The notes below the pieces were generated by a model. The model did no database searches, was not told where the DNA came from, and saw only the letters and a program-made list of their open reading frames with translations. The position numbers were made by a program, and so were the translations under genes. This document shows positions 11,259-57,160 of a DNA stretch of 64,000 nt, in pieces. How positions within the stretch are numbered: the stretch's first letter is position 1; every line of letters begins with the position of its first letter. The stretch comes from an uncultured virus (IMG/VR IMGVR_UViG_3300030098_006717) (Duplodnaviria > Heunggongvirae > Uroviricota > Caudoviricetes): IMG/VR virus record IMGVR_UViG_3300030098_006717, one strand, 5' to 3'.

Positions 11259-11313
11259 CTAAAGAATTACTTGAAGTAATCAATTTTTTGATATACTTAT
11301 ACAGGTAGTTAAC

Positions 11314-23804: not shown

Positions 23805-25051
23805 TGCATAAATTTATTTATTCACAAAAAGATTCTTGGATAGCAGAAAACTCATCATCAGTTAATTTTGGTGGCGATGAAGTTTTAGAATTACATAAAA
23901 GTTTTAACTCAAATGTTAGTGGTAGTTACACTAATGGAGTTACTAGAATATTAACACAATTTGATTTAACTGAAGTTTCAAATTCTATTGTATCTGGTGA
24001 AATAACAAGTCCAACATATTATTTAAGGTTATATTCTACAGAAGCTTCTGAATTACAACATACATATAATTTAGTAGCTCATCCATTATCACAATCTTGG
24101 GAAGAAGGTACAGGTCATAGATCTGATACTCCTAGTGTTAAAGATGGTGTTTCTTGGAAATATCCAGACACTAGAGATGAAAATGTAGAATGGACATTAA
24201 GTTCTTTAGATGATATCGGTGGTGGTGGAAATTCAACAACTGGTAGTAGAACATTAGGATCTGGATCTTCTGCTACTGAAAGTGGATCTCAATATGGTGG
24301 ATCTTGGTATACCGGATCTGGATTTACAGCTACACAAACTTTTTCTTATCAATCTCCGGATGTTAGAATGGATGTTACTGATATTGTAAATAAATGGATA
24401 AATGGTAGTACCTATAATTCTTCTCCACTTGGGTATACAGAAGATAATAGTGATGAAGATGATATTCCAAATTATGGTTTTATTTTGAAGGCTAGTGGTA
24501 GTGGTGCTGATAACGAAGAAAATGATAGTTCCAGAATGAATTTAAAATTTTTCTCAAGAAATACAAACACAATATATCCACCTAAATTAGAAATAGCTTG
24601 GGATGATCATGTATCTATGGATTCAGATGATAATCCAGGATATCTTCATAATTTAGAACAATTAGATATGAGTGGAGAAACTGATAATTATATTTATGTT
24701 AAAGGTATAAGGCCGGAATATAAAGAAACGGAAACTGTTAAGTTTAGAGTTGGTGGTAGAAAAAAATATGTTGGAAGAACATTTTCAACTTCTGTACAAA
24801 CATTATCTGGTTCATATATTGGTGAAAAGAGTGGTTCATATTCTATAGTAGATTTAACTACCGGAGAAACAATAATACCATTTAGTGATTATACATATTT
24901 GAGTGTTGATAGTTCAAGTATGTATTTTAAACAAGATATGAATACTTTTCAGCCTGATAGATTTTATAAAATTTTAATTAAAGTAAAATATGATGATGGT
25001 CAAGAAGTAATATATGATAATGATAGTTTTCAATTTAAAGCGGTGAGGTAA
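23804..25051 (+). CDS. DNRLRE-domain virion structural protein
   Basis: DSWI...NFGG...RILTQFDL...LRLY...W.EG...DVTDIV..W...NYGFILK...PKLEIAW pattern. Confidence 0.7.
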   Translation: MHKFIYSQKDSWIAENSSSVNFGGDEVLELHKSFNSNVSGSYTNGVTRILTQFDLTEVSNSIVSGEITSPTYYLRLYSTEASELQHTYNLVAHPLSQSWEEGTGHRSDTPSVKDGVSWKYPDTRDENVEWTLSSLDDIGGGGNSTTGSRTLGSGSSATESGSQYGGSWYTGSGFTATQTFSYQSPDVRMDVTDIVNKWINGSTYNSSPLGYTEDNSDEDDIPNYGFILKASGSGADNEENDSSRMNLKFFSRNTNTIYPPKLEIAWDDHVSMDSDDNPGYLHNLEQLDMSGETDNYIYVKGIRPEYKETETVKFRVGGRKKYVGRTFSTSVQTLSGSYIGEKSGSYSIVDLTTGETIIPFSDYTYLSVDSSSMYFKQDMNTFQPDRFYKILIKVKYDDGQEVIYDNDSFQFKAVR

Positions 25052-26459: not shown

Positions 26460-29400
26460 ATGCCTAGACACTCCACATCTAAACCTTTATGGGAAGATCA
26501 TAAATCTAAACCCGTAACACCTGAAATATCCCGAACAACATGTTGTTTTAATGATAGAGATTGCCCACCATATTCAGATGGGGATATATATTATCAAGGT
26601 GCTTGTGATAGAAGACTCCCCCATCCAGATTGTACAGATGAGGGTTTTTGTGCTGAAGCTGGTTTTGACTCATGTTCTGAAAATTCACCATGTCTACAAG
26701 AAGGTTATGATTGTAATGGTATAGCCAGTGACGGTGGTGTATATTATTGTTGTGTTCCAGGTGATGGTAGTGGTGATAGATCACAAGAAGATCCAGCAGA
26801 AGCTTATGTTAAAAGATATGCTTGTATATATTCAGAATTTCATGATGATGAAGATGATGAAGATGATGGTGGTGTAGACATAGATGATATTGTAGATATA
26901 GATGATCAAATAGCACCTCTCCCATGTAATTGTAGAACATTTGATTGTAGTCAATGTACAGATACTGGTGATAGTGCTTGGATAGGTGATTATTTTAATA
27001 ATGGTGGTATGGTTACAACATCAACTTCTGACGATGATAATAGTGAAGAAGAATCAGAAGATTGTTTTGGAATATATGATTGTAATGGTGATTGTGATGG
27101 TGGCGCTGTTTTAACTCAGTGTTATTTTGATATAGATGGTGATGGGTTTGGTCAGCCTGGTGGTGTACAACTTTGTACTGGTGGAAATACCGAATATGTT
27201 TCTGGTCAATGTAGAAAAGAAGAAAATTGTGGAGAATATCAAACAGGAGTTATATCAGCTGTAACTGGTAATAGACTCGGAGACAGATTTGTTACATTAA
27301 ATCATTTAAATGGTTCACCCGATTTAGAGGGTAATCATTATCAATATGTAGATTGGCCATATTATTCTGCCGTTGGTGACCCGTATACAATTTCTTTATA
27401 TTTCAAAATAAATGAATACTCTGATCAAGCAAAACAGAGTGGAAATATAACTGGTCTTAATATAGGACATTATAAAAATTTCAATATTGTAGATTCTGGT
27501 GATAATATAAATATTGAGATGACTCATATATCCTTAAACCAAGATGGTGGACCACAACCAGATTCTGGTCAAAATCCATGGACAGGTGGTCCTGGAGATC
27601 AGTCAACTGGAGAATTTTTAGAAGGTGGTGCTGGTTATATTAATATGTCATGGTCTTTTCCTTCTATACATCCGAATGATATTTACGATAATAAAGATTG
27701 GGTTCATTTAGTATTTATGGCAACACCTTATGGGAATACTGGTATTTATTATAGTATGTACATAAATGGTGTTGAGGGTGAATGTATTTCAGGTTGTCAC
27801 AGAGACAATTTACCAATGACAATGGTAGATTTTGAGGATCTAAGGTATTATTATACTAACACTTCATTTGCGGAGATGGCTGCTTGGGATACAAACTCAT
27901 ATAATGTATCAACTAATACCTTTGTATCTGAACCAAAACATCTTTGGACTTTTGGTCACCATCCCAAAGACACTGTTAATGATCCAATTCCTAGAAATAA
28001 TAATTCACCGGTAAATCCTGCAATAACAGTAGATACAGTTTTATTAGATAAGGCTTTAAATGGTGAATTGGTTGAATGTGAAAATGGTATGAATGAGATA
28101 TGTTATCAATCTAATATGAATCCACATCATCCTGGAACTGAATTACCACTTAATGAAAATCAGACTTTTGAATTGGTTAATCAACAAGGTGGATATAAAT
28201 TATATTTACCTGGTCAAACTTTAATAGGTCAACATCCATTAAGTACTTATAAGGTTGATGGAATTGAATATACCAATTCATCTATATGGTCACAAAGGTT
28301 AATACATCAAGGTGTATATAAACTTTCATTTTGTGCATCTAATGCACCTCTGACAACACCTGATGGTGAAAATATAAACATTGCAAATGATTTAACGGTG
28401 AAGTTAAAATATGTAAAAAACAATAATACAGGAGATATTGCAACGGAAGCAATTGTTGGTTTAACTAATCCTAATGATGTAGGGTGTGCACCAATGGGTG
28501 TGTATTTCTTTGCTAGAGCTCATGATACCGGTCACGGTACTGCAGATGATGAACATTTTCTCACAAATCATTATCAATACAATCCAATGTGGATTGAAGT
28601 AAGTGGACCTTCTTTCTGGAGTGATACTTACAATATATACATTAGTGATTTGAAATTAGAACATCTTCCAGGTAGACATTTTATGCATAGGGGAAACTTG
28701 GGACAAAGTAATCCGGACTATAATTATAATAAAAGTCTTTATGATTTTAATGAATTTGAAGTATGTTATTCAAATAATTTAGATGATATTAATGATATGA
28801 ATTATTGTTTATCTAATGTCTATGATGAGTGTGGTATATGTGATGGTAATGGTGTTGTTCAAGATTGTGGATGTGGTGCACCAGGAACAAAGGGAATTCC
28901 TGACGGATATTGTAACTGTGATGCTACATTAACATTAGATTGTAATGATGTATGTGGTGGTACAAGTGAAATAGATTGTGCTGGAGTTTGTGGAGGTAAT
29001 GGTGTAGTCCAAAATTATTATAGAGATGCTGACGGTGATGGTTTGGGTGAAGAATTTGTTGGAACATATTGTTCAGCAGATGTTGATGATCCAACTTTGG
29101 TAACAAATTCTAATGATTTAGTACCAGATTGTTTTTCAAATGAATTAGATGAGTGTGGTATTTGTGATGGTAATGGTCCTTGTAAATGTTTAGATATAAA
29201 TTATTATCAAGATTCTAAGCAGTTAATATCTAATAGTTATGAAAATATATTTGGTAATTTAATTACACCAGATAATATTAGTTTTGGATTGGTTCAAGAA
29301 AGTGTAACAACATTTAATAATAATGAATATGTAACCATAAATAATAATGATTCTATATTTTCTGTTGGGAATTTAACAACCCAATTTGATTGTGATCCTA

Positions 29401-31697
29401 TTTCACATCCAGAGTTATGTTATGAATCAGATTCTAATTTTTATTTATTTTGGGTATCCGATAACAATAATTTACAATTAGAAATACCAAATGATTTTAG
29501 AATATGGAATTGTTCACTTGATGAGTGTATACATTCACCTGAATCTGAATTAAATGTAAATGAAGTACCTTCAAATGGTATGATATCTTATATATCAAAT
29601 CTTGGGTCTGGGTGGCATGTACTTACTCTTAAAAATAATATTGTAAAAGTTCCATTTGAACCAAGTCCTTTACCTCATATATATGCGTGTGAGTGTTGTG
29701 AATCCAATTCTCCCCCTAATGTACCTTCATTACCTAATAAACCAAAACCAGATTTACAAAGACCAGATTGGATTACTACATGTTGTAATCAATGTTGTGA
29801 TGAAATAATACCACCATCAATACTTGGATGTACATATCCAGATGCGTGTAATTATAATGAAAGGGCTCAGAGAGATGATGGGTCTTGTTGGTTTGCTGAA
29901 GAACCATGTACATGTAGAAATTATTCTGATGGACCTGATAGTGCTTATGTAGATTGTTATGGTGTATGTAATGGTGATAATAGAATAGATGATTGTGGTG
30001 TATGTTCCTGTAGTGGAATTCAAGCACTTCCAACAATTCTTGATCAAGGATGTGGTGGAAATCAACATAGGCCTAATAGTGATAAAGATTGTTCAGGTGT
30101 ATGTTTTGGAAATGATTGGTCGTGTTATTATCCAGATAGTTTGTTAGATTATTGGAATTGGATGATAGAAGATGAATGTAGTGTATTAGATTGGACTCAA
30201 CTTCAAACATTTATATTAGCATTACAGGAAGCTCCAACTCAACAATGTTATGATGAAGTTTTAGTTCCAGCTGGAGTGGAAACTTGGTGGGATTTTGTAA
30301 CTATGTTATATTGTCCAGATTGTCCTGATTGTCCTGATTGTCCAGAATGCCCAGATTGTATAAGTTGTGAAGATATAGGTTTAGTTACATGTGATGATGG
30401 TTCATGTGCGGCTACTGAGGGTCAGTGTGGGTGTCCTGATTGTCCAGATTGTCCGGATTGTCCAGAATGTCCAGATTGTAATTCTTGTTGTACAACTTGT
30501 GAAGAGATAGGTTTAGTTACATGTAGTGATGGTTCTTGTGCGGCTTCTATAGATGATTGTGAATGTCCAGATTGTCCAGATTGTCCGGATTGTCCGGATT
30601 GTCCTGACCCCGATTATACTGGATGGGTTGAAGAATCTTCAACATGTGGTGGTTATGTAGATAATGATGCTGATGGTAATGGTGGTATGTGCGCTGATAC
30701 AGGATTCATAGATCCAAGTGGAGGATGTGATTCAATGACAACACAATGTGTTGATTATTCTGGAACTTGTGGTGGTTATACAGATAATGATGCTGATGGT
30801 AATGGTGGCGTATGTGCAAATACAGGATATATAAATCCGAGTGGTTCTTGTGATTCAATGACAACACAATGTGTTTCATATTCTGCTAGTTGTAGTGGAT
30901 ATTTAGATAATGATGATTCAGATAATGATGGGTGGTGTCAAGATACTGAATTTATAAATTCTGATGAATGTCAATCTTGGGTAAATGATGCAGTTGGTGG
31001 GGAAGGAGTTTATTGTACGGAAGATTGGTGTACCAATTATACAGATTTATTTAGTGATGATCAATGTGCGGCTAATTATTCATACTTAGGTGAACCTGAT
31101 TTTCAGTTTCTAAATTCTTTCTTATTAGGTACACCTTTTTGTGATACGGATGTGGCAGATGAAGATGATCAAGATAATTGTGATGGGGTAATATATAATG
31201 ATTTAGATGAATATTTAATGACTCAAGACTATTCAACATATTTGGATAGTGTATATGCAGATTCAGTATCGGATACTTGTAATGATACTTGGTGTTTGGA
31301 GAGTTGGGAGACATTACAAACGGTTACTACTTATGATACTATTACTGTTGCTGGGGGACTTTCTCAGCAAAACCCACTTGCAAGAACTTTTATTGCATAT
31401 CCATATAGAGATGAATTTTATGATCAATTAGGATTAAATCCAACTGGTAATGGACTTTGTACATTCATTGGTATTTTAAATGCTTCTTGGAGTAGTACAT
31501 TTGTAAATGGTGATACCTTATTTTCTAATAGTTCTGCAGGAACTTACTTTTTATCACATAGTGGTACAAGTTGGGGAGTTATAAGTGGAGATGTTGACAA
31601 TTTACCTCAAGGAATAGGATTTATGTTACAAACATCAAATGCGGGTGAAATAAATTGGACTTTACCTGTTAATTGTATACCAGTGGAGAATAGTTAA
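26460..31697 (+). CDS. 1745-aa Cys-rich modular protein (LamG- and CBM-like inserts, DxDxDG loops, CPD repeats)
   Basis: Continuous ORF with DECGICDG, GCTYPDACNYN...DDGSC and (CPD)n motifs; no signal peptide. Confidence 0.85.
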   Translation: MPRHSTSKPLWEDHKSKPVTPEISRTTCCFNDRDCPPYSDGDIYYQGACDRRLPHPDCTDEGFCAEAGFDSCSENSPCLQEGYDCNGIASDGGVYYCCVPGDGSGDRSQEDPAEAYVKRYACIYSEFHDDEDDEDDGGVDIDDIVDIDDQIAPLPCNCRTFDCSQCTDTGDSAWIGDYFNNGGMVTTSTSDDDNSEEESEDCFGIYDCNGDCDGGAVLTQCYFDIDGDGFGQPGGVQLCTGGNTEYVSGQCRKEENCGEYQTGVISAVTGNRLGDRFVTLNHLNGSPDLEGNHYQYVDWPYYSAVGDPYTISLYFKINEYSDQAKQSGNITGLNIGHYKNFNIVDSGDNINIEMTHISLNQDGGPQPDSGQNPWTGGPGDQSTGEFLEGGAGYINMSWSFPSIHPNDIYDNKDWVHLVFMATPYGNTGIYYSMYINGVEGECISGCHRDNLPMTMVDFEDLRYYYTNTSFAEMAAWDTNSYNVSTNTFVSEPKHLWTFGHHPKDTVNDPIPRNNNSPVNPAITVDTVLLDKALNGELVECENGMNEICYQSNMNPHHPGTELPLNENQTFELVNQQGGYKLYLPGQTLIGQHPLSTYKVDGIEYTNSSIWSQRLIHQGVYKLSFCASNAPLTTPDGENINIANDLTVKLKYVKNNNTGDIATEAIVGLTNPNDVGCAPMGVYFFARAHDTGHGTADDEHFLTNHYQYNPMWIEVSGPSFWSDTYNIYISDLKLEHLPGRHFMHRGNLGQSNPDYNYNKSLYDFNEFEVCYSNNLDDINDMNYCLSNVYDECGICDGNGVVQDCGCGAPGTKGIPDGYCNCDATLTLDCNDVCGGTSEIDCAGVCGGNGVVQNYYRDADGDGLGEEFVGTYCSADVDDPTLVTNSNDLVPDCFSNELDECGICDGNGPCKCLDINYYQDSKQLISNSYENIFGNLITPDNISFGLVQESVTTFNNNEYVTINNNDSIFSVGNLTTQFDCDPISHPELCYESDSNFYLFWVSDNNNLQLEIPNDFRIWNCSLDECIHSPESELNVNEVPSNGMISYISNLGSGWHVLTLKNNIVKVPFEPSPLPHIYACECCESNSPPNVPSLPNKPKPDLQRPDWITTCCNQCCDEIIPPSILGCTYPDACNYNERAQRDDGSCWFAEEPCTCRNYSDGPDSAYVDCYGVCNGDNRIDDCGVCSCSGIQALPTILDQGCGGNQHRPNSDKDCSGVCFGNDWSCYYPDSLLDYWNWMIEDECSVLDWTQLQTFILALQEAPTQQCYDEVLVPAGVETWWDFVTMLYCPDCPDCPDCPECPDCISCEDIGLVTCDDGSCAATEGQCGCPDCPDCPDCPECPDCNSCCTTCEEIGLVTCSDGSCAASIDDCECPDCPDCPDCPDCPDPDYTGWVEESSTCGGYVDNDADGNGGMCADTGFIDPSGGCDSMTTQCVDYSGTCGGYTDNDADGNGGVCANTGYINPSGSCDSMTTQCVSYSASCSGYLDNDDSDNDGWCQDTEFINSDECQSWVNDAVGGEGVYCTEDWCTNYTDLFSDDQCAANYSYLGEPDFQFLNSFLLGTPFCDTDVADEDDQDNCDGVIYNDLDEYLMTQDYSTYLDSVYADSVSDTCNDTWCLESWETLQTVTTYDTITVAGGLSQQNPLARTFIAYPYRDEFYDQLGLNPTGNGLCTFIGILNASWSSTFVNGDTLFSNSSAGTYFLSHSGTSWGVISGDVDNLPQGIGFMLQTSNAGEINWTLPVNCIPVENS
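30312..30614 (+). repeat. three blocks of 9-bp TGTCCNGAY repeats encoding (Cys-Pro-Asp)n
   Basis: Blocks at 30312-30359, 30432-30479 and 30564-30614, separated by similar CExIGLVTCxDGSCAA units. Confidence 0.9.
30642..30945 (+). repeat. 123-bp (41-aa) tandem repeat, about 2.5 copies
   Basis: TCGGYxDNDADGNGGxCAxTGxIxPSGxCDSMTTQCV units start at 30642, 30765 and 30888. Confidence 0.85.
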
Positions 31698-51900: not shown

Positions 51901-54661
51901 ATTTGTTGATTGGGGTGATGGATCACCTATAGAATTTGATGAAAAACCTCATAGAATTGGTGATAATCATCAAGATACTGTTGTGAGTCACGTTTATGAG
52001 AAGTCTGGATTATTTAATATTACTGGATATATGTTTGTTGCTTCTATGGAATTTGATTCGGAGGATCAAGATTGGAAAGAAATAGGAGTAGCTACTACAT
52101 CAACTTTCCCTGGATATAAAAAGTTTAGTGTTTTTGTATATTTAAATAGAGATCCAAAAGATTCAAGTGAATTTGAGGCTATGGGTGGTACTGGATATAA
52201 TTATATTCCTTATGAAACAAGTGGAAGTTATAAAAAATCATCACCTGTTATTGGTGGTACTACAAAAGAAAGTGTTTATGTTAAAAGTATTAAAAGAGAA
52301 TTAGGATATATTAATGAAACTCCTATTAATATTAAATTTCCTTATTATCAAGATAGATTAGATGCTGAATATGCATTGGCTCAGGCCGATGAGAAATATC
52401 TAAATAGTGAGATTAGTAGATATACTGGATCATTAGTACCTGAAGGTATTACTACTATATTAGATTCTGAAGGTTTAACTGATATTACACAAGAAGTAGA
52501 AAAAGAATCTAATTTTAGTGGATTTTATAGTGGTAGTGTAGATGCTGATGGAGAATTTAATACAAATACTATTAGTTTAATTCATAAAGGAAATTATAAA
52601 AATCATGGAGAATTAGGACAAAGTCTTGGTAATGTTGATATATCTGAACCGAGAGTATTTGGTGAAGGTTCGACTGATATGTGGCAACATCTTGGATTCC
52701 AAGATTATGAGGCCGGTATACCTGATAATCCTAGATATTGGAAAAATATAGCACCGAAGAATTATACTATGAAAGATAGAGGTGGAATTGGTGTTGAAAA
52801 TTACATTAAAACTAAATCTAACAAAGTATCAGATTGGAGTAAATGGCCATTTTATACAGATGCATCTTCTTGGAATCAATTACAAAATCCACCTATACAA
52901 TCTTCTAAAAAAATGTCAGGTGAAAGAGTAAATGTATTTGAAGGAGTTACTGCCAATGCTCAAAGTTCAAGAATTTGGGATTTTTATTATCCTTATAGTT
53001 GGGAAGAAGGTGATAATTTAACATTTTCTATTTTACTTAAATCAGATACACCTTTATCTGTTGCAACTAAATTTTCAATTAGATCTAATGTTGTAGATGA
53101 AGATACTCATCAAAATCCAGATGGAAGTAATATTATTGTAGATGATGTTCCTTTATCTCCATTAGGAGGTATATCTTGGGATGAAGATTCTGCAAATCAA
53201 TATTGTATTGATGCTGGATATGCTTATATAGTTAGTTATGAGGGATATCATACTGGATGTGAAACTATTAGTATATATGCTTGTACTGATAACAATGAAG
53301 AACAGATACCTTGTAGTGTGTATGGGGATGTTGTACCTGGTGAATATTGTGGTGATGAAACTTTAATATGTGGGGATGATGGATTGTGTCATCATTATTA
53401 TCCTGAAGATTGTAATGAAGATATAAATATAGATTCTACTACTGGTGAATATTGTGAATCATTTGATAATGAAAACGATTGTGATATAACCTATTGTACA
53501 TGGATAACTTATGAACCAGTGTGTTCTGGAGGGGAAAATTCAGATACTGATGGGTATGGTATAGATTGTAGTTTACTTGATGTAGATGAGTGTGGAGAAA
53601 CAAATGAAGATATAGGTTATGGTGAAGGTGATTGTCATTGGGTAGACAATTCAGAATATAATAGTTGTGAAGTATCTATTGATGCTCCTTCTTGGATAGG
53701 TAATTGTTCTGAACTTCAAGGTGAAAATTATACTTGTAACTCGGTTGTAGATAGTACTCCTAATTGTGTACATAATTATTATAAATATAATATTGAAAAT
53801 GGTGAGTGGGATATACTACAAAATGTTAATCAAGAAGCTATGTTAATATCAACTATCACTTGTACTCATGATGATATTTTAGATGATGATTATGGTTCAC
53901 AAAGTAAAACAATTGGATTGGATAACCAATGGAATAATTTTACTTGGAATGTAACGGCTCATGAGGGAACTGAAAATGGTGGATTTGATTTGGAATTGAT
54001 TGGTATACCAAATAAAAAAATATATGCTGTTTATCCTTCTTTTGTTCACGGACAAAGTGTAGATCAAGATAATATTGATGAACAAAGTGACCAATCTTGG
54101 TTTGGAACACATCCAGATACGCCTGGTGAAAACCCGTATTATTATCCTGTTTTACCTAAAATTAATCAATATGGGCAATTTGATGAAAATTTAGGTATGA
54201 TGGGTGGTAAAAATTCTCAACAATTTTTAGGTTATATATGTGAATTAGGAATGCCGGATGAAAGTGAATATTATAATGAAAATGGATATTTTGATAATCA
54301 AGAAACTTGTTTAACTGCAACTAGTTGTACTGTTAATTCTGTTCTTTGTATTGAATATTATCAAACTGATGTTTCATTAAATAATGTTCCATTTGGAAGT
54401 CATAATAGAAAATGGAATGAAAAAGATGAACAAGCTTTAGTGAATAAAAAACAAATTGATAATAGTTATAATATAGAGATGAGTCTAAAAGTATCAGAAG
54501 TTAATAATGAGGCTATAGAAGATAAAAGTGGAGCTGGACGTTTAGGTTTGACTACCGGTGATTATAGAGTTGGGTATGATAAAGATACAAAAGAACCAGC
54601 AAAAAATCCAGAAAGAATAGATGTAACAGTTTCAAATAATAGAAAAAGAGGACCTGTATAA
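33917..54661 (+). CDS. 6914-aa giant Cys/Asp-rich modular protein (LTD, EGF-like, 31-aa repeats, LamG, PKD, CBM-like)
   Basis: 20.7-kb stop-free frame; GTG start with GAGGAG SD. LTD motif IIINE...IELYNTTENDIDL (~34300-34420), LamG GLVAHYPLD...WHHYV...FYIDG...DDIKLYNRDLS (~44510-45262), PKD VDWGDGS...SHVY (~51900-52030). Confidence 0.9.
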   Translation: MANQVSLNFDYNLEGYDVNNSDVLNIYLDGIALTLSNGLASAPQINNGTIFLSLVGTAGSEVQELLSNGGILTLTLESYDEGTSQEFQASLPPMEIASGNQTIPLNDVYGTWPGLTVSFFLPQSLETSIIINETLTRHAIDQYSYIPPLIELYNTTENDIDLCGYYLLVCPGEILSDYATETGTCSAINPLTQTPYVPIELSCGGDSDDEESIYNQCKSTCNSGFMTPSLTSKFLGKNTKISPDSYFTLIADESSYLISSYASVAHNNILNYSWLYAYYGYADYTVMRDFTALFIESGDYMMNYPKYVDTCWYCGSTQPFTPQAAVIPFTTNLSKNTYVLYDGNPSNGGNIVTRLKVDGTDTFADLLGVGYEYSPDIGFNADCDDFNLDNQEYFVQGKSLEFTKHLDDDVVDLQSEAEYWKLTDVLTNPSKEFKLTFLPDATSDCTNLTCYDVDPSGSPCVSCPQEATEFLNIMMLNMGQVMWDKNPWLDVGGIIKPSEMEIRFKNSAPMASDCIANYGTFGNQNHYSCNGDGYQPGSGFCPDEWILNCDGELGDWDVNTFPVDCNGNLCPEWDVGSFGPHPLNNPAEVYSLDECGECRQIYPDVDTDTNTSCQGCIGGGTDLGYGVFNQHQTVHSDDCGDDCPCIQYENTSSEIDNYDGKYFCRDPEDSTEYENYTACSVSCIDWDCYYEKEECHFFDIQPDGVNDYDTNICEYSTTFGLSVGDDIENNFWLTIGNNFPIDEVTNIQFTGVTITGAIDPPDGVSVELIDDQNIRIWTEDGQWLQTDCGDNWCHGLNPINKIKLGYTGTADDSSVTISSVTGVTFDIPGSPTAQSIELRNNTLTTDCNGTIGGSDENDECGVCGGDGYYTSCTCQPNTNICDASDCWGTDICGNCTNGSGTCDENPGSTTNHLNDNGCYNWNTYLDAYGTSVDGCVDCSGTIDGTSEFDTCYDCAGDNTDDCNSTGTCIDGGPNNGGSCNCDSNYYGEICDSLCACQNSSICNDGVSGDGSCICLHSDDSAGYYGRNYGSSLCNLEYDNCGVLDGQNLGLDCNGNCNDIPTFDGTVNHISDGNPNYLQILLNHDDWDIETVYDDEYGEISYPTIMQRLCDSALGNCGWQTSSNKRYIMINNSPNQNDISYDILINNGNCSELEENSQALCEEINNLTDGFTPYAYIVSNTTPSGTLHLHYNRNEDPRPWDNLNNISESINVKIIPRPSAILDDCNVCSGGNSGHVANSDKDCHGDCFGTAAIDDCGVCSGGNTGLTPNDDKDCNGDCFGSAVVDTCGVCSGGNTGHVANSDIDCNGDCFGTAELDDCDVCSGGNSGHVANSDKDCNGDCFGDAALDDCADCTGGNTGLVANYDKDCNGDCGGSAVIDTCGVCSGGNSGHVADSDIDCNGDCFGTAELDDCDVCSGGNSGHVANSDIDCTGTCFGDAVVDDCGVCSGGTSGHVSNSDKDCYGDCFGTAIIDDCDVCTEGNTGLVENYLQDCNGDCNGSAIVDDCGTCSGGNSGHVADSEKDCNGTCNGSAVIDDCGVCSGGDSGHVANSDQDCYGTCTSNLDISTTNCIDGNVGLGYNPSETACFALSTVDDCGVCSGGNGETPNGDKDCNGDCNGSAFLDDCGVCSGGNSGHVANSDKDCNGDCNGSAVIDDCEECTEGNTGLSENYLQDCNGDCNGTALLDDCNVCSGGNSGNVANSDKDCHGDCFGSAIIDDCGICTEGNTGLSENYLDLGCGCNENAPSGCNNECDSVLEDDECGICGGDGTDDTYGCCPANSPTYPNQNTSGQGPDCAGYCGGNNLTDNCGTCDSNSGNDCTQDCAGVWGGDAVVDDCGVCDGNNCSCVSCTCDDKCENGFQYTNGSSTCTNGICSECTYTETSCEGNPCVGNYCGDSGCTGDSFAGCPENQSCNDLGSNQYECICVSGTFDCNGICDGTGVEDCAGVCNGEAVIDECGVCGGNGISDVEDVFGGYNSCDCDGNINNGCGCSSETNNQFPTDGCDNTCGSTLEDDVCGVCGGDGYSDETNQCCGGEIGDCNGDCDGSAVLDDCGTCSGGNSGHVANSEKDCHGDCNGSAIVDDCGICTEGNTDLVENYLQDCNGDCNGTAVVDDCGTCSGGNSGHVANSEKDCNGDCNGSALVDDCGVCSGGNSGHVANSDKDCNGDCFGSAFLDDCNVCSGGNSDHVANSDKDCNGDCFGTAELDDCQVCSGGNTGHVANSDQDCDDTCFGNWNINLCGECTNGGSCLTPLCGCDQLCESHVIDDCGVCDGGNADKDCYGECNGTAAVDDCGVCAGGNTGNTPNIDKDCNGDCNGSAIVDDCGECTEGNTGQVENYLKDCNGDCSGTAVQDSLCPGNGCCGGNTGVICSFFMDNDADGYGGAYDCNQECGGTAIIDNCDVCSGGTTGHVADSDIDCTGLCFGTAVLDSCNVCSGGTSGHVADSDIDCNGDCFGSAFLDDCGTCSGGNSGHVANSEKDCHGDCNGLASIDDCGICTEGNTGLANNYLQDCNGDCNGTAVLDNCDVCSGGNTGHVADSDIDCNGDCFGTAYLDDCTSPICVGGNTGLEANDTCTDCNGDVNGTAEDDSCGVCSGGNSGHVADSDIDCNGDCFGSALEDTCGVCSGGNSGHVADSDKDCNGDCFGTAYVDNCSDCCGGNTGVDCQNWNGNGSPGYPNLLSNTLSCDCDSQLSYDCNNDCGGSAVEDDCGTCCGGNTGLDCVYENGEPYCGSEFEWNCPNGNQRWTCLSQGGFHSSQETCHNVCTNQYDGEECIHECEANNGTCSVNDADGPFECTYSNNNCCDCAGSANGGNSLDDCGTCRNPSCGTDGTWPECYVNNPCPNGEWPNNLDWNTSCLGCEGCPNTGTVIDPCDICDGNNTDCGEIYFDLSTYSYTIDDYGQYVSVDVYATSRNTVGKLDIPFEYQVPAYYLEYHEAVTGVAEIVDFTLSSTFIDAGFNAYYSGWFGDYPDNLLQIRDGELSAFSSTKVGTAKFKLAEDKVIHWIFFDVRADRKPTFYSMDDEAYGDILTNNADAIQLIFGCNDPHGGVASSFSDSYQSYQYWGVNYSDCTYDDNDGDAMNYQYQSNTGMCTMYACNEFSHKTYCTDGGTTGDNCCCSYPTLTLNNLTYEDVDYPIATHNADGIGIMSLTSGTTYKDTDDFRLDWTSSGWDDGYDITTYVDDKFRAFLVKQDGMEIIHSEIVDEDQPSETLFSTSLLGDKNTLSTGAYTWYLTWPAYDLSGNATTSPSSGDVKISDYIAFVVDRPGCTRQQDSYGNQSNNYNSVSSEDHGICSDDSSACIVGVDVCPNSGTCISRTCTFRDIYYNSWICDNGADPTPLYFGNEPDCVSWCTEHKGETNCVQLTNTQLCYEDELDNKCDNDSDGNYGVCNGVDRYIWYDDSNDHDGVGCINTLTYVCPDKNHYWHIGEPPGYGWLYGGTESSPSDSINNIDGISIWNIPNYNSHLYYYNNDGNNDVVYLDGLESGEACECTSKYHCTDTGGGYIEQSYISSDCDSECENECVKISYVQDSCDVCQPTWDELTDGLVAHYPLDLDYSELYGSDISISGNLVFSDGHVTMEDHQAAGGSAGQYFGSNTINNIRTWAFWAKASLYCGGDTSYSYQCSSNGDPCGDSGQHSCSWNTQTILSTKSRFTGDTPEDSSLGESNQVNISYGGFQFNSDNNGGWASTKSVKSTGAGAIYQDGGWHHYVAILKDNGAINFYIDGTNKTKCSDFEYGSTCGTGTYSPIEFKSQGWLGIGTGAGNGWGATYYGSVDDIKLYNRDLSPEEIVELYNAGRPNYSELVYDSRNGCGYCQSEYSGGFDTTLLNEEVLWINYDSPTDCNGTCFDLTDPTSGPFTNGYGAYLDDCDICSEGNSGHTANSQIDSCGKCMTSTGTNNIGEDLYICSNDCGGGVYVDPANGSDPCNNVCNGFCERISSTCNDLPTGPAGTTWTDLYTWYWNYSCMECDNQLNSGAYKDDCFYCCGTSDAITVGGFLDNCHVGENDGTMTGPSTGCLGYCQYQADWNYETISILDDTGTCCYESQMAHMFPDIDYQYGVMDYVGELGFCEDPTCGSQSACEDVNQCNSTWYWTNPIKFCDDGREYIVYSGGSSLKCDTIQENPAVYPNVNADSCDAWTTQPGRLASESGFTYYKVTDLCDGWIDDCGSCWSNDQYINNYNEVWNSAMDCRGTVSSCSDGNSWAIDDCGFCIYPNCIEGLIPSYWDGLVNTLNACDNGYYPSEQKWNSLCTGCTDINADDNDTCYDSSGQLIECTISCNNDTHQITLDSFVDDNDDDTYNNWGISFHSNTGYCTTETNFSNCCCHYILSEPSPQKIDWDGDGNIDEDDKVNDRYIHGYIQVGEPSSVIEPIILDWVYLGPIENTTFNIYRNDSVTPEDPSSVSWVSVTGTPINPADVLHPNETFGHYRFADNLMYPIYGDGSEPFVEEQRFFTYYIEVLNVNPDLKSTIVGYVDGGNSSPLPSELEASPNNYTLQTDVDTHLAVNVETSSPSIWITSPTYTDVVNITYTPFDNITLSIEYDDLVYIPGADSDFNQFKGIISDTFGNEIFSSVFDIDNTFGTLDWNITSNIWQNVIETGYYKISFEYPDASGNYLTYDYDEDGVDDNYQLYIQVVLGCLGNYSEILNSTCNCYNCYDLCGECITEEPDGGWEEDSPVPSACYDDGFYNVNASVDYCTDEYGVITDIKCNYPSDPVCGAFGFCNGSCTYPLGGCMDSGSERGGACITPTATECVDDTQCESNQVCGYDNFCHTECRVPGMHADCAFDGSECIKAPTTYENNQGYYGSVTPGTAGDYYYICSHDMHDGSPTICNNSEDNQTCIDACTSSGGENCESSICGNFATIEDNSCQYYGCLDVDANNYVCNISPYPVGCYIDAWNSNVPDSCTFNFQVNLEYGLEVDGTNWILPNGEFTDKLSLGVENNEDNPWIVVLPYPSVQPDGATEQGGETQYLELRVIGEDSNQYQVWYPTESSAGFSIVESLGVEGSGWEVPVGFDIVEDDLEVQNLQYCSDNTSQDCVTDDDCTGTCIRLMQKIVIPDYNHLNPISTDPYKFSLTLVNPEQTSNSVTKDLWIKFINNDYTPVLDVSVGYNQLNIDIATGDGENVQGTMPLKAYDLDNEEFTLSFETISSTHEDQSINLLTYVPEVTTITNNDPNNLFNLVVQSPEVIGFYTARGTLKQDVSNTMVNSWGCELDSIGNDHGDGEYLFDMPCPGDCIYYSEGWEIGNSGNGYPTCAGHDQCTEAGKGQCVPIVRPLHGEIETYLDFAVNVYDTSGPSGFLLMTPVPSFGISRDTWQFQFVGEDGRTHIGGDESSYSYGSGVGLGTITYEYGVIEESVTHPYVCEAVEGEYSSVQCDVVENDNAICIAAGNNFGNWDSTACINNPIYDPSNACVGVDQQKQLKFGSSISEYAYNQIVAEYGLAGDLTENEFLDFYNDESGLQFELTNMDGSDPPEDPEGTRSVNGVIYQCYKYISTEFSENWETDVEQYTDVISNPNYGGWLPKNAYNPIKNPSGDPNDTIWKYQLEIQDEYGNELYKKTWQDWINEDTLLPSYWDCSDSDNDGNNDYCWYSGPGGTPTTYYPPPNSNMAVSNVESIVKNVVRFKFSEEGVYKVIGRAWDLHYNEDPYQGTNSGSLEYELNVEPVIPIKQSVPQKYLPWQGINYPENIWVDNYRGNDYLDFINKSTRRKLGCFWEKDNEFLTWTEIAENQYDDNINKSVIVSTQTYDDACSSQVEKEAMNNTTLEIKNAVISRNYGNDNYSNLILNYHSNTYYDNEYKQGALINPIDIIDQSVFMEDIGGGWRFKEFTYLDMDIYIENLDFVPHQIEWTNGCNLGTSGCGGITVSLMPEVGFWEIGWNHIKADLHYGVGHQSQDINPNNMGRWEIYRTGCDGGYDITFVPDVDVRTPLSLLGNRSTPFNYWDEDLNKDEFDENKAPVELQFYFYKRELKKVCQDTNNSCYTDSECSDDLKCVDVMFEDLPIIPFSNPSDTFIGFVDWGDGSPIEFDEKPHRIGDNHQDTVVSHVYEKSGLFNITGYMFVASMEFDSEDQDWKEIGVATTSTFPGYKKFSVFVYLNRDPKDSSEFEAMGGTGYNYIPYETSGSYKKSSPVIGGTTKESVYVKSIKRELGYINETPINIKFPYYQDRLDAEYALAQADEKYLNSEISRYTGSLVPEGITTILDSEGLTDITQEVEKESNFSGFYSGSVDADGEFNTNTISLIHKGNYKNHGELGQSLGNVDISEPRVFGEGSTDMWQHLGFQDYEAGIPDNPRYWKNIAPKNYTMKDRGGIGVENYIKTKSNKVSDWSKWPFYTDASSWNQLQNPPIQSSKKMSGERVNVFEGVTANAQSSRIWDFYYPYSWEEGDNLTFSILLKSDTPLSVATKFSIRSNVVDEDTHQNPDGSNIIVDDVPLSPLGGISWDEDSANQYCIDAGYAYIVSYEGYHTGCETISIYACTDNNEEQIPCSVYGDVVPGEYCGDETLICGDDGLCHHYYPEDCNEDINIDSTTGEYCESFDNENDCDITYCTWITYEPVCSGGENSDTDGYGIDCSLLDVDECGETNEDIGYGEGDCHWVDNSEYNSCEVSIDAPSWIGNCSELQGENYTCNSVVDSTPNCVHNYYKYNIENGEWDILQNVNQEAMLISTITCTHDDILDDDYGSQSKTIGLDNQWNNFTWNVTAHEGTENGGFDLELIGIPNKKIYAVYPSFVHGQSVDQDNIDEQSDQSWFGTHPDTPGENPYYYPVLPKINQYGQFDENLGMMGGKNSQQFLGYICELGMPDESEYYNENGYFDNQETCLTATSCTVNSVLCIEYYQTDVSLNNVPFGSHNRKWNEKDEQALVNKKQIDNSYNIEMSLKVSEVNNEAIEDKSGAGRLGLTTGDYRVGYDKDTKEPAKNPERIDVTVSNNRKRGPV
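37580..41839 (+). repeat. about 33 copies of a 93-bp / 31-aa Cys-rich repeat in five blocks
   Basis: Consensus DDCGVCSGGNSGHVANSDKDCNGDCFGSAVV; copies counted by eye from the translation. Confidence 0.92.
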
Positions 54662-54664
54662 TAT

Positions 54665-57160
54665 ATGGCTACTAAAAAAATTATAAATAATTCTATTCCT
54701 GATGAGGGTGGACTTGGTCAAATGAATATTGATGATGAAACTCTTTTGCAATCTGGTATTGGTGATTTATTTCATTTATATACTACTAGACATGAATATG
54801 ATTATAATGAAGATAATATAGAAACTTACCCATCCAATACTAATAATTCTTGGAATGATGGACTTAATTGGATGAGTGATGGTAGTGAATTTAAAATTAT
54901 TAATGCTAAAATAGTAAATAGAGGTGTTAATATGGATGTTGTGGGTGGTGGATGGGCTGCTTATGTTGTAGATGATGCTATGAATCCTGATATAGCAAGT
55001 GCAGAATCAGGTAATGCAATTAGAGATGCAGTTGGTGGTACTAATGAGGCAAATCAAAATGATTGGGATGAAAGTTATGCATATCTTTATCACAAATCAA
55101 GAGGAACTATAAATTCAGGTGGATCTATTGGTGAGATTATAGAAGCTTCAAATTGTACTAATTGTCATGATGATTTAACAATTTCAGATTTTCCAAAAAA
55201 CTTTAATACAGTTTCTGATGAATATACTGCTATTAATGGGGATATGGAAGAATTTTCAAAAGATATGGGTTCTGGTAATAGTGCTTATCATGTAGTTATA
55301 AGAATGGCTGGAGATGCAGAAGATTATGGTCCTAATGATTCTAGAAATAGAAGTTATAACAAATATACTTTAAGAAAAACTTTATTAAAAGATATGTGGA
55401 TGCAAGGTGAAAATTTTGAAAATAGTCATGATGGTGGAAATTATGAAGTTTTTTGTTGGGGTAAAGGTGTGGGTGATTCAGTTGGTCAAGGTTTAAATTG
55501 TACACATAAAGTTGGTCCTAATACATCTACTGTTGCTGATAATTATAATATAGATGACTCGGATGAATGGGAAGATGTGACAGCAGCTGCTTTTAAATGT
55601 CAATGGTTGGCTGTTAAAGTAACTCCACCGACTTGGAAATTATCTGAAGCTCCTAAAGATATATATTTTGGTGAAAATTGGTATAGGGGTATATATTGGA
55701 TTAATGAGTTAGATAATAATGATTATATAAAAATAAGACCTGATAATTGGGTAGATTATACATTTTTATATACGGATAGTACAGAAACTGAATTTTTAGA
55801 TCCAAATCATATATTTGATTTCAGACCAGTAAGTCATATTAGTGTAACTCATCCAGATGATGAAGATCCACAAGATGATCAACCAGGAGATGGTATAGAT
55901 ATTCAATCTTTCTATGAGCCAGAAACAACAGAATTTCAATATTCTGTCGCTCCAAATGTTGTTAGATTACAATTTAAAATGTCATATGATTATACAACTG
56001 CTGCAACTGAATTAAATTATTTTACTTATAATGCTGAATCTAATTTATGGGTAATAAATGATATAAATCCAGATTCTAATTCACAACTTGGATATCCAGG
56101 TGATATTGGTTTTAAAATGGTTGTAGTAGATTGGGAAGCTGAAGATTCTGATTTTGATTTTGATGATATTTTATTTGATTGGCCACAAGATTATACTGAA
56201 ATGAATAATCTTAGACAATTAAAAAATACTTATCATTTTAAAGATGTATATGATAAAGAAACTGAAACTTATAATTCTTTGTATCATCAGTATAATACGG
56301 CGGGATATAAAATTATAAAAGCATTAGTATTTAGTTATATTAAACATTCTAATGACCAAGATCTAATTCAGGCTTTGAGATGGAAAGGTGTAGTTATAAC
56401 TCATCATTTAGCCTATAGTTCAATAGATATGGAAGACTTTGGTTTGATTGGTGGTCCTGGATACACATTTCTTCCATGGCCTTATACTACTCCTATTGTT
56501 GGTGGTATAAGTAATGATAGTCAATATATTAATAGTGTTGAAAATATTTTAGGTAAAAATTACTTTAAAGAAACTGAATATAATTCATATTTTCAGACAT
56601 TAAATAGTTGGAAAAATAAACCTGGAAGTGAGATAGATGAGTTAGGTAAATATCCAGGTAAAATAGATTTTGGTCAATTAAGATATTTTAATAATGGTAA
56701 TTTTGATATGAATAATTTACTTGGAATATCTTCTAATATAACAGATTTAGAAGATGGATCTATATTCCATCCATATAATGATTTTAATCATTGGCAAGGT
56801 GATCCGTGTCAAACAGATGAGAATCAAGATTATTTAGATCAATATTTTGAAGATTTATATGAATGTACAAATTTACCAACATATCCTCAAGATTCTTGTG
56901 TTGGACTTATATTTATAGAAGACAGTATGCGTACTGATTTAAAAAATGCTTGTAAATTAGAATTAAGTGTTAGTGATATAGATAATGGTGCATTGATAGA
57001 TACATCTTTGGGGGATAAAAAAGGTATACTTATAGGTGATTATTCTTTAGAGAAACGTGATTATTTAGATCCTGTGGCAAAGACATCAGAACCTATTGTA
57101 CCTGAAATAGATGATGTTGATTCACCACCATTAAAATTTGTGGAGGATATTACTACATAA
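54665..57160 (+). CDS. 831-aa structural protein, paralog of the C-terminus of the 6914-aa protein
   Basis: Ordered shared motifs (see findings); GAGG SD. Confidence 0.85.
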   Translation: MATKKIINNSIPDEGGLGQMNIDDETLLQSGIGDLFHLYTTRHEYDYNEDNIETYPSNTNNSWNDGLNWMSDGSEFKIINAKIVNRGVNMDVVGGGWAAYVVDDAMNPDIASAESGNAIRDAVGGTNEANQNDWDESYAYLYHKSRGTINSGGSIGEIIEASNCTNCHDDLTISDFPKNFNTVSDEYTAINGDMEEFSKDMGSGNSAYHVVIRMAGDAEDYGPNDSRNRSYNKYTLRKTLLKDMWMQGENFENSHDGGNYEVFCWGKGVGDSVGQGLNCTHKVGPNTSTVADNYNIDDSDEWEDVTAAAFKCQWLAVKVTPPTWKLSEAPKDIYFGENWYRGIYWINELDNNDYIKIRPDNWVDYTFLYTDSTETEFLDPNHIFDFRPVSHISVTHPDDEDPQDDQPGDGIDIQSFYEPETTEFQYSVAPNVVRLQFKMSYDYTTAATELNYFTYNAESNLWVINDINPDSNSQLGYPGDIGFKMVVVDWEAEDSDFDFDDILFDWPQDYTEMNNLRQLKNTYHFKDVYDKETETYNSLYHQYNTAGYKIIKALVFSYIKHSNDQDLIQALRWKGVVITHHLAYSSIDMEDFGLIGGPGYTFLPWPYTTPIVGGISNDSQYINSVENILGKNYFKETEYNSYFQTLNSWKNKPGSEIDELGKYPGKIDFGQLRYFNNGNFDMNNLLGISSNITDLEDGSIFHPYNDFNHWQGDPCQTDENQDYLDQYFEDLYECTNLPTYPQDSCVGLIFIEDSMRTDLKNACKLELSVSDIDNGALIDTSLGDKKGILIGDYSLEKRDYLDPVAKTSEPIVPEIDDVDSPPLKFVEDITT

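Follow-up and report, generated by a model that had tools for sequence, protein, structure and literature searches.

Within the 64,000-nucleotide stretch of an uncultured virus analysed here (IMG/VR record IMGVR_UViG_3300030098_006717, Caudoviricetes; hereafter the window, meaning the whole stretch), four tightly packed open reading frames (ORFs) on the + strand form a block of ~31 kb embedded in a cluster of baseplate genes, and one of them encodes a giant protein of 6914 amino acids (aa). With a probability of roughly 0.6, we read this block as a hypervariable baseplate appendage cassette of a widespread, uncultured marine myovirus, whose products would be carried on the virion. Their location on the virion is suggested by the position of the genes and by the predicted binding of the giant to the protein encoded just upstream, a candidate adaptor of 462 aa. 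The four ORFs are as follows:

26460..31697, + strand: Cys-rich accessory ORF of 1745 aa; ATG start; 191 kDa; isoelectric point (pI) 4.05; 6.9% Cys (121 residues)
31697..33916, + strand: Cys-containing accessory ORF of 739 aa; ATG start; 82 kDa; pI 4.05; 3.8% Cys (28 residues)
33917..54661, + strand: the giant, 6914 aa; GTG start; 750 kDa; pI 4.05; 6.7% Cys (465 residues)
54665..57160, + strand: protein of 831 aa; ATG start; 95 kDa; pI 4.21; 1.1% Cys (9 residues)

A sequence-only reading of this DNA had already singled out four packed ORFs here, and the ORF list returns them at exactly the same coordinates. From the 462-aa gene upstream to a 2191-aa gene downstream, the spacers are 17, −1, 0, 3 and 13 nt; the + strand holds 26 of the 27 window ORFs of at least 150 aa, and no minus-strand ORF of that size lies inside the block. 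The GTG start of the giant immediately follows the TAA of the 739-aa ORF, with the Shine-Dalgarno-like sequence AGGAG 6 nt upstream. A chance origin is impossible for an open frame of 20.7 kb in DNA of 30% GC. The four proteins are acidic (pI 4.05–4.21) and the first three are rich in Cys (3.8–6.9%), as the sequence-only reading had held; the other 22 tabulated ORFs of the window contain 0–3.8% Cys, and the flanking structural genes 0–0.3%. Asp (9.5–11%), Gly (7.3–10.8%) and Asn (8.2–9%) are abundant as well, and Lys and Arg each account for 1.1–2.3% of the 1745-, 739- and 6914-aa proteins. Because high Asp and Asn are also common to the adjoining Cys-free structural genes, the distinctive features are the Cys content and the very low Lys and Arg, and the Asp/Asn richness stressed earlier does not set the block apart from its neighbours. 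A signal-peptide-like N-terminus, which the same reading had reported missing, was found in none of the four proteins: the maximal Kyte-Doolittle mean over 12 residues within the first 45 aa is 0.33–1.42, compared with 2.2–3.0 for three window ORFs with obvious signal sequences, in a simple hydropathy test that uses no trained predictor. Hydropathy likewise reveals no transmembrane-like segments in the four proteins.

The cassette had been presented as one set, a description that needs amending, as its ORFs are not equivalent: the 6914- and 831-aa proteins share a module found across the clade, and the 1745- and 739-aa proteins are extra and poorly conserved. In the giant this module forms the C-terminus.

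51407..54658, + strand: conserved C-terminal module of the giant, residues 5831–6914, the only part of the giant conserved among relatives

The module consists of a PKD/Ig-like domain, a second domain that resembles no solved structure, ~400 aa of Cys-rich insertion and, at its C-terminus, a beta region; its conserved stretches are module residues 70–470 and 890–1080, and the insertion between them is an extra of the window's protein. An exhaustive profile-free search recovered 341 representative homologues at E ≤ 1e-3, of which 45 reach E ≤ 1e-30; the longest of the 150 listed has 2996 aa, and a 5364-aa protein of a related contig (G004, see below) shows that this list is not exhaustive for giants. 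The AlphaFold2 model of the module, built on 71 sequences, has a mean predicted local distance difference test score (pLDDT) of 60.9, rising to 80–95 over residues 65–460, and its PKD/Ig-like domain is a predicted beta-sandwich resembling solved PKD domains. For the module fold, Foldseek found no match in PDB or BFVD at E ≤ 1e-3, VIA-align covered residues 66–251 only, and the ESM Atlas gave no usable match. Residues 537–797 of the 831-aa protein are homologous to the module (hhalign probability 98.8%, E 8.6e-17; BLAST, 28% over 121 aa), which makes this protein a paralogue of the giant as far as the anchor part goes; ELG...D....RYF, the best-conserved motif of the module, recurs at residue 658 of the 831-aa protein. 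By tblastn, the module, the 462-aa protein, the repeat array described below and the 1745-aa protein have no match in 50,697 GenBank phage records.

The genes on either side of the cassette place it in a baseplate operon:

21144..21581, + strand: gp25-like baseplate wedge protein, 145 aa (PF04965 GPW_gp25, E 6.5e-19)
21597..23804, + strand: gp6/J-like baseplate wedge protein, 735 aa (phrog_219, phrog_10646 and phrog_6, 'baseplate wedge subunit')
23804..25051, + strand: conserved baseplate-cluster protein, 415 aa, with no Pfam or PHROG family
25054..26442, + strand: candidate adaptor, 462 aa; homologues precede the cassette in marine relatives, and binding to the giant's module is predicted
57174..63749, + strand: Cys-poor fibre-like protein, 2191 aa (1 Cys), the downstream boundary of the cassette; conserved homologues, no family

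The gp6/J-like protein matches its PHROGs at E values from 1.9e-23 (phrog_219) to 4.4e-12 (phrog_6), with a weak, below-cut-off match to PF04865 Baseplate_J, and its closest relatives, at 34–37% identity, are found in the 484-kb record of an uncultured phage, in Microcystis phage Mel-JY01 (190 kb) and in Flavobacterium phage immuto (160 kb). Thus the upstream neighbours proposed earlier, gp25 and gp6-like wedge genes, are borne out by PF04965 and phrog_219, and the label 'gpI/gp7-like' for the downstream gene finds no Pfam or PHROG support. Homologues of the gp25-like gene precede the gp6-like gene in all relatives examined, and the 415-aa homologue adjoins the gp6-like gene on its 3' side in both immuto and Mel-JY01, as it does in most marine relatives that reach that far. 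In two viral contigs (L024 and L025) a 2008-aa ORF (L025 9090–15116) is inserted between these two genes, which is a second variable site of the same baseplate operon. The order in immuto and Mel-JY01 is gp25-like, gp6-like, 415-aa homologue, one small ORF (113 or 413 aa) and 2191-aa homologue, the last of these a few hundred bases to ~1.2 kb past the 415-aa homologue. Nothing like the 31-kb block occurs at this place in either phage, and neither has a detectable counterpart of the 462-aa protein. The 2191-aa protein is homologous to unannotated proteins of 1265 aa (immuto) and 1336 aa (Mel-JY01), and to proteins of 1565–2055 aa that follow the cassette in the related contigs G001, G002, G004 and G005. 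It matches no Pfam or PHROG family, whole or tiled. When PHROGs were searched at E ≤ 0.1, one tile of this protein gave two weak matches of unknown function, and the other 9 of the 10 pieces gave none.

A scan of viral contigs recovered 34 related loci, and seven related marine viral contigs, whose gp6-like proteins are 39–48% identical to that of the window, carry a variable cassette at the same place. A scan with a degenerate Cys motif at the DNA level yielded five loci (G004–G008), one of which, G007, is not of this lineage; Cys-rich versions are over-represented because G004, G005, G006 and G008 were found in this way. Between the 462- and 2191-family genes, or in the place of the cassette, the seven contigs contain:

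G001 (L044): ORFs of 2352 and 589 aa; main protein 6.2% Cys
G002: ORFs of 2002 and 944 aa; main protein 2.6% Cys
G003 (L046): ORFs of 1058 and 1312 aa; main protein 0.6% Cys
G004 (L053): ORFs of 2116, 5364 and 889 aa; main protein 6.1% Cys
G005: ORFs of 1177, 714, 3404 and 428 aa; main protein 8.3% Cys
G006: open frame of 3107 aa in the cassette place; main protein 4.1% Cys
G008: open frame of 3103 aa in the cassette place; main protein 4.1% Cys

The main protein thus ranges from 1058 to 5364 aa in the relatives, compared with 6914 aa in the window, and in all seven it has the same C-terminal module; conservation is confined to the C-terminal ~1000 aa, and the N-termini are unrelated. In the five contigs examined for it (G001–G005), an 831-aa homologue (428–1312 aa) follows the main protein, and the 2191-aa homologue comes next where the contig reaches far enough. 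G005 repeats the entire four-ORF layout of the window, with a 714-aa ORF (5.3% Cys) in the position of the 739-aa protein that has no BLAST-detectable similarity to it. The check proposed with the sequence-only reading, namely whether the block varies between related phages and its baseplate neighbours stay, therefore came out in its favour: the cassette varies among the seven contigs and is absent from immuto and Mel-JY01. Since CheckV estimates the 39–57-kb contigs of the relatives to be 21–30% complete, the genomes would be near 200 kb in size and the cassette would occupy ~15% of the window's genome.

Domains found on the cassettes of relatives indicate what such proteins may carry:

L044 9587–16642, − strand: main protein of G001, 2352 aa, headed by a Peptidase_S8 subtilase (residues 64–370, E 1.1e-29)
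L053 1304–7651, − strand: Cys-rich accessory ORF of G004, 2116 aa, with a Dockerin_1 domain (residues 544–610, E 4.6e-10)

The subtilase has signature stretches of the D/H/S type and is followed by many 'GC.D..A.NYN..A..DDGSC' modules and the Cys repeat, and the dockerin hints at a cohesin-dockerin-like assembly in the cassette family. Two further peculiarities were seen in these contigs. The 1312-aa homologue of the 831-aa protein in G003 (L046 11276–15211) contains a Hint/intein-like segment at ~826–988 (PT-HINT, E 1e-7; Intein_splicing, E 3.6e-5, below cut-off). In G004, at L053 35650–36660, the homologue of the 462-aa protein has only 291 aa and matches the N-terminal part only, and ~1 kb without an ORF of at least 200 aa follows; the C-terminal domain of the adaptor may have split off or diverged there.

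The predicted link between cassette and baseplate is the 462-aa protein, whose homologues of 473–713 aa precede the cassette in marine relatives. Its C-terminal beta-rich domain, residues ~239–459, is predicted to bind the giant's module: for the 462-aa protein with module residues 60–470, the interface score ipSAE is 0.66, compared with 0.03 for the best of three controls. The mark is reached by 116 of 157 solved complexes and by 2 of 215 mismatched pairs, counts that hold roughly here, as the prediction used alignments of our own. Runs share at least 47% of their contacts, with a pLDDT of at least 53 for the partner. In the best-defined contacts, residues 281–288 of the adaptor (FTLTKWVR) pair with module residues 410–418 as an added antiparallel strand.

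52598..52681, + strand: predicted docking strand of the giant, residues 6228–6255 (KNHGELGQSLGNVDISEPRVFGEGSTDM), with the contacts of least expected error at module residues 410–418

The docking motif is the most conserved of the module family (E402 in 55 of 61 sequences, G404 in 57 of 61, G408 in 56 of 60, D411 in 54 of 60 and R416 in 45 of 61). On the adaptor side the interface comprises residues 279–303, and G280, F281, T282, T284, W286, F289, G296, T297 and N300–P304 are invariant in eight sequences. The predicted interface therefore coincides with the best-conserved parts of both families, and this conservation is independent of the model. Profile searches of PDB with the module and the 462-aa family returned nothing meaningful at E ≤ 1; as no related solved complex exists by this search, it is unlikely that the prediction recalls a known one. 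Taken together, the modelling supports binding of the 462-aa protein to the conserved module of the giant. A LamG-like domain in the adaptor finds little backing, with a Laminin_G_3 match in one of eight family members (E 0.019). A C-terminal tail, 'D.SG..N.G...GDY', may resemble the first strands of LamG domains, a likeness that no profile match supports.

In front of the module, the N-terminal ~5800 aa of the giant are nearly free of known families. Searching whole proteins and 59 overlapping tiles of 400 aa against Pfam gave a single match above cut-off, Laminin_G_3 (34.5–38.6 bits; cut-off 27.6), and the lectin-like decoration that the sequence-only reading had envisaged is to that extent borne out, in one domain:

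44900..45247, + strand: Laminin_G_3 domain (ConA-like lectin/glucanase), giant residues 3662–3777 (PF13385, E 1.6e-9 to 2.7e-8)
37577..42016, + strand: arrays of a 31-residue four-Cys repeat, giant residues 1221–2700, interrupted by other Cys-rich stretches

Sub-threshold hints in the giant are a teneurin-type epidermal growth factor (EGF) domain at ~960–991 and a lamin-tail domain at 126–252. NCBIfam yielded no family for six pieces, PHROGs none for the block proteins at E ≤ 1e-3, and a PDB sequence search with the giant in two pieces and the 1745-aa protein no match at E ≤ 0.01; giant residues 4300–5300 have no match in the viral contigs. Cys density reaches 10–18 per 100 aa over residues 1201–2900 and in several more blocks, and falls to zero or near zero in the intervening beta-rich stretches and the conserved core. 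The repeat has the consensus DDCGVCSGGNSGHVANSDKDCNGDCFGSAx and a period of 93 nt; its motif matches 38 times in the 6914-aa ORF, 36 of them within residues 1221–2700. Its 'CGVCGG' may resemble a motif of ADAMTS Cys-rich regions. DxDGDG/DxDADG loops and 'GC..A.NY...DDGSC' modules also occur in the cassette. A model of six repeat units (AlphaFold2; alignment of the six-unit stretch, 6 other stretches of the window and 40 bacterial homologues) has a mean pLDDT of 96 and a predicted template modelling score (pTM) of 0.65 and consists of strictly periodic short strands; in this model the array forms a regular rod, which most likely acts as a stiff spacer. Neither Foldseek nor VIA-align matched this fold to PDB, which may be due in part to the difficulty that aligners have with elongated, strand-poor models. 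No Pfam or NCBIfam model covers the repeat, and the ESM Atlas gives only unnamed clusters, with one weak lead (0.77) to Binary_toxB and TSP3_bac on a minority of cluster members.

The kin of this repeat are bacterial. For the 1500-aa region of the array, 733 of 7999 scored candidates are homologous at E ≤ 1e-3 (best E 3.4e-252; local identity 27–70%), and 69 of the 120 listed carry PF18962, the sorting domain of the type IX secretion system (T9SS), in keeping with the earlier claim that such repeats are typical of exported bacterial adhesins. The sources are named FCB group bacterium, Marinimicrobia, Fidelibacterota, Flavobacteriales, Owenweeksia, Phaeodactylibacter and Chitinophagales, and several homologues lie on contigs of 0.4–4.5 Mb, thus in cellular genomes. 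Their companions include glycoside hydrolase, carbohydrate-binding module (CBM), pectate lyase, Ig-like and dockerin (PF00404) domains, and at least 8 of the 120 listed have TIG, CPW-WPC or RING domain sets of eukaryotic type. When phage and bacterial copies are aligned jointly, the columns of Cys, Asp and Gly show an invariance of 90% or more. PF18962 is absent from all four cassette proteins, whole or tiled. By homology, the phage repeat is thus best viewed as one that is widespread in the extracellular proteins of the FCB-group secretome, has no family model and occurs in the phage without either export signal. This kinship, together with the kinship to a Flavobacterium phage, indicates that the host is probably an FCB-group bacterium; a cluster look-up for the host returned one named member, 'FCB group bacterium'. 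A 310-aa repeat stretch found no match in the viral contigs, the search patterns being too specific.

The 1745- and 739-aa proteins share only the Cys-rich repeats with the giant. The 1745-aa protein has no match in Pfam, PHROG, NCBIfam, PDB or GenBank phages, and among 5.8 billion clustered proteins its non-repeat core finds just one homologue (P0274, 1718 aa, on a 5.5-kb contig; 41% identity over 1345 aligned positions). It contains DxDGDG/DxDADG loops and one GC..A.NY module. At residues 1285–1383 (window 30310–30604) there are three (CPD/E)n runs, beginning at 1285, 1325 and 1369 and joined by CxxC-rich linkers; with a Cys at every third residue and no family match, they look like a metal- or disulfide-ladder element. 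For the 739-aa protein no family exceeds threshold, DUF5077 being sub-threshold only. By eye, the C-termini of the two proteins (31400–31697 and 33500–33916) and residues ~575–650 and ~1160–1240 of the L044 protein look alike, as a small beta-type domain ending in S.G.W.G ... G.GY-like sequence, through which the accessory proteins might attach.

Several known systems resemble the cassette in part. With the T9SS cargo of FCB-group bacteria, of which SprB of Flavobacterium johnsoniae is the classic giant surface protein, it shares the 31-residue Cys repeat, the arrangement of modular beads with lectin, Ig or PKD domains and the acidic, Cys/Asp/Gly-rich composition. The phage proteins differ from this cargo in that they lack a signal peptide and PF18962, are encoded in a baseplate operon and end in a module that is found in seven related viral contigs and is absent from GenBank phages. 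Like the fibres and receptor-binding proteins of classical myoviruses (T4 gp34–37 and gp12, P2 gpH), the cassette lies beside wedge genes and is variable in size and sequence between conserved neighbours. Unlike them, it has no sequence or profile similarity to phage fibre families (PHROGs and the 50,697 phage records), its conserved, presumed anchor is C-terminal rather than N-terminal, giving a reversed polarity, and it is built of Cys-rich extracellular modules instead of a trimeric beta-helix or coiled shaft; no chaperone gene was recognised with it. Ig-like and PKD domains are also carried by T4 Hoc, for which 'adherence to mucus' has been proposed, and by the modular adhesins of gut phages (PMC13370021). 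Those are small decorations of capsid or tail, whereas the proteins here span 0.8–6.9 kaa, belong to the baseplate cluster and have their PKD-like domain in the conserved anchor module and not in the variable part. With the cellulosome scaffoldin the cassette has in common a long modular scaffold, spacer repeats and carbohydrate-binding modules, as well as the Dockerin_1 domain on G004's accessory protein; for the four proteins of the window, the search of 59 tiles at E ≤ 0.05 turned up neither a dockerin nor a cohesin, and a cellulosome-style attachment of the 1745- and 739-aa proteins to the giant is a conjecture by analogy.

Nor is length in itself new. The sequence-only reading had contrasted the block with phage fibres, usually far shorter, but size alone has a precedent: huge phages are reported to encode proteins that reach 7,694 aa, some of them 'tentatively annotated as structural' (Al-Shayeb et al. 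2020, PMC7162821); these are alike in length, and the passages on them in that paper give no architecture. The 484-kb record with a gp6-like relative is among the GenBank phages without a module or repeat match. The earlier suggestion of an undescribed system fared better: the system has no counterpart in GenBank phages, PHROGs or NCBIfam, and neither giant Cys-rich baseplate proteins of phages nor the repeat were found described in open-access papers and preprints. A preprint on diatom trail proteins (10.1101/2023.03.06.531300), as far as its text was consulted, deals with other Cys repeats (DUF4215 and others), not with the 31-residue repeat. What is new, then, is the Cys-rich build derived from the host secretome, a conserved module at the C-terminus together with the adaptor predicted for it, the return of such a cassette across a widespread marine clade and a confidently predicted repeat fold without a solved relative.

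From the anatomy, synteny and homologies of the block we infer the following arrangement on the virion. The 462-aa protein would sit as an adaptor on the periphery of the wedge, and the giant and its 831-aa paralogue would each dock through their conserved terminal module, the strand ELG..G.D....R.F adding to the beta-sheet of the adaptor's C-terminal domain. With the anchor at the C-terminus, the variable N-terminal part would point outward, and its ~5800 aa would form beads on a string of extracellular-type modules: ~38 four-Cys repeats, EGF-like and other Cys knots, DxDGDG-type loops that probably bind Ca, and at least one LamG lectin domain. Each wedge might carry one monomer of 750 kDa, a mass that we take to be about that of a whole T4 long fibre. 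As neither export signal, signal peptide or T9SS sorting domain, is left, folding would take place in the cytoplasm or after the protein has left it. Given the lectin domain, the PKD-like domains and the spacer arrays, the role is most likely long-range, reversible, glycan-directed attachment to host envelopes or to the polysaccharide particles that such hosts inhabit, and the subtilase of G001 and the dockerin on the accessory protein of G004 fit a display scaffold with exchangeable tips. The capture net or protective coat put forward in the sequence-only reading is a supposition.

One can go further, although we regard the following combination as rather a long shot. A clade of abundant marine phages might have drawn on the T9SS adhesin kit of its hosts to make appendages that reach 750 kDa and are monomeric, scaffoldin-like and anchored by the C-terminus, with a new docking pair (the domain of the 462-aa adaptor and the ELG..G.D....RYF strand) and a four-Cys rod repeat without a solved counterpart. 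The 1745- and 739-aa proteins, or enzymes, would possibly be carried as exchangeable subunits, and the disulfide-locked final form would be reached only after lysis into oxic seawater. The virion would then park on algal polysaccharide particles colonised by its hosts or, alternatively, engage in homotypic binding to the hosts' own repeat-bearing adhesins.

Misassembly was the outcome that the sequence-only reading had named as fatal to itself. That the giant ORF is an assembly artefact, a repeat-driven chimera of at least two genes or of a phage gene and a bacterial adhesin gene, is highly improbable. Near-identical sequence occurs in 20 listed marine or seawater metagenome runs of 12 studies from 2014–2025, and 9 of these runs hold at least half of the sampled words (one of the 20 possibly has the same source as the window); runs show the phage at a contig depth of ~30x, and contigs of four runs from four studies were compared with window 34700–54699. 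Contigs from two studies (X1 and X4), of 11.9 kb and of 20.5 or 18.9 kb, cover 34700–37621/37626 and 41772–54699 with 0–1 differences. The array itself, at 37.6–41.8 kb, is represented in the short-read contigs of all four runs by pieces of 279–1005 nt, none of them bridging, and its depth is raised by cross-matching sequence, both of which would suit a chimera; yet all listed X1 and X4 pieces are identical to the window, and the 93-nt repeat copies are only 60–87% identical in the window's DNA, that is, 13–40% different. Given this divergence and the flanks confirmed in other studies, repeat-driven misassembly is unlikely, and an error in copy number would keep the frame, the unit being 93 nt or 31 codons. 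Both flanks of the array are phage-like in composition and Cys-rich in character, and related contigs independently encode proteins of 3103–5364 aa with the same order of parts, repeats first and conserved module last. Joints across the array were considered as alternative forms and set aside as repeat cross-matches, with sides of 21–32 letters, mostly from one run, and 90% likeness. Equally remote is the idea that the window comes from a bacterial locus for a contractile injection system or a tailocin, with ordinary adhesins of the bacterium as its 'fibres': such systems also have gp25 and gp6-like genes, and the repeats are of bacterial type, but the cargo on the same strand, from PhoH to transfer-messenger RNA (tmRNA), is that of a lytic phage, the wedge protein is nearest to phage proteins, and the 34 related loci come from a viral contig collection.

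More weight, if still rather little, attaches to the proposal that these are not virion proteins, and instead leave the cell at lysis or are exposed on its surface as it dies, serving as soluble adhesins, decoys, matrix binders or scaffolds for enzymes directed at the host surface or marine gels, the pairing of the 462-aa protein with the module then organising a non-virion complex. Folding outside the cytoplasm is the normal course for Cys-rich modules of the extracellular type, the homologues belong to the secreted surface proteins of bacteria, the block bears no similarity to known fibre families, and relatives carry enzyme and assembly domains (subtilase, dockerin). Auxiliary and lysis-stage genes, though, are not usually located where these are, in a gapless, same-strand place between wedge genes and a conserved fibre-like gene that is kept in seven relatives, and an investment of 31 kb, or ~15% of a genome of ~200 kb, argues for a core role in infection. 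A separate question, which touches the stabilisation of the proteins and not their role on the virion, is whether the cysteines bind metal, with one Zn(Cys)4 site per unit (CxxC plus CxxxC) and further sites in the (CPD)n runs, instead of forming disulfides. This is possible but the less favoured option: it would let the proteins fold in the reducing cytoplasm, where phage proteins assemble, before lysis, and it accords with the CxxC ... CxxxC arrangement of the four cysteines, with the CxxC pair and the DC cysteine being at least 90% invariant across phage and bacterial copies, and with the Cys at every third residue in the three runs of the 1745-aa protein. On the other hand, no metal-binding family was matched in Pfam, whole or tiled, disulfide-crosslinked parts of phage virions are documented in the portions of PMC13576161 consulted, and the bacterial homologues, many of them with PF18962, cross an oxidising periplasm, where disulfides are generally the rule. 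Because these homologues mature in the periplasm, we lean to disulfides, by roughly five to three.

A virion appendage remains the reading that we prefer, and several points count against it. It is hard to square 465 cysteines with assembly in a reducing cytoplasm. The 1745- and 739-aa proteins lack the anchor module of the giant. The module and the 462-, 415- and 2191-aa proteins have no PHROG, Pfam or PDB tie to a known baseplate or fibre component, and the complex prediction, a model and not a measurement, was made with a shallow alignment of eight rows for chain 1 and came out at low fold confidence (pLDDT 48–65). Four of the seven cassettes were found by their Cys motif, and the main proteins of G002 and G003 contain only 2.6% and 0.6% Cys. 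No contig of the four runs bridges the array at 37.6–41.8 kb, so its copy number is unconfirmed. Lastly, a search with the peptide deformylase for a host lead returned only short metagenome fragments.

If the proteins are indeed virion appendages, they would be attachment organs unlike trimeric fibres, being monomeric, adhesin-like, Cys-rich, C-terminally anchored and exchangeable as cassettes. Because at least 12 studies spanning a decade have the lineage in their marine metagenomes, the appendages would bear on the search of phages for hosts or particles in a dilute ocean, and the folding of a cytoplasm-made protein with 465 cysteines is a biochemical puzzle in its own right. An abundant extracellular repeat of bacteria and phages that has neither a Pfam or NCBIfam model nor a structural relative offers a testable object, and its distribution provides a host-phylum lead for an uncultured phage clade. 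The new predicted interface between adaptor and anchor is a second testable object and could be reused for the display of cargo on phage baseplates.

The remainder of the window looks like a lytic marine myovirus, with genes for PhoH, Dam methylase, thioredoxin, peptide deformylase, HSP20, NT5C and HNH, two tRNAs and a tmRNA:

8575–9054: thioredoxin (PF00085, E 1.2e-23), overlapping the peptide deformylase gene and 17 kb upstream of the cassette
9051–9647: peptide deformylase (PF01327, E 1.6e-31)
10769–10844: tRNA-Ala
10845–10919: tRNA-Pro, back to back with tRNA-Ala and the tmRNA
10922–11261: full-length tmRNA (Rfam RF00023, 107 bits, E 1.3e-42), tag peptide GNDYQMAVA

The tag of the phage-borne tmRNA could hint at the host. 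The thioredoxin might handle the 600-odd cysteines of the cassette or be ordinary cargo of nucleotide metabolism; thioredoxin genes are common in large phages, and the presence of one here proves nothing. Near the C-terminus of the 2191-aa protein, at window 62126–62838, lie ~5 tandem repeats of 41 residues (123 nt) with a DNA identity of 66–80%. Finally, two small acidic ORFs with signal- or lipoprotein-like N-termini, at window 279–749 (MKIISILFLLFISCDD...) and 11591–12481 (MKNLSMKTLITSSILMLGLFGIVRAEE...), appear to encode exported phage proteins.

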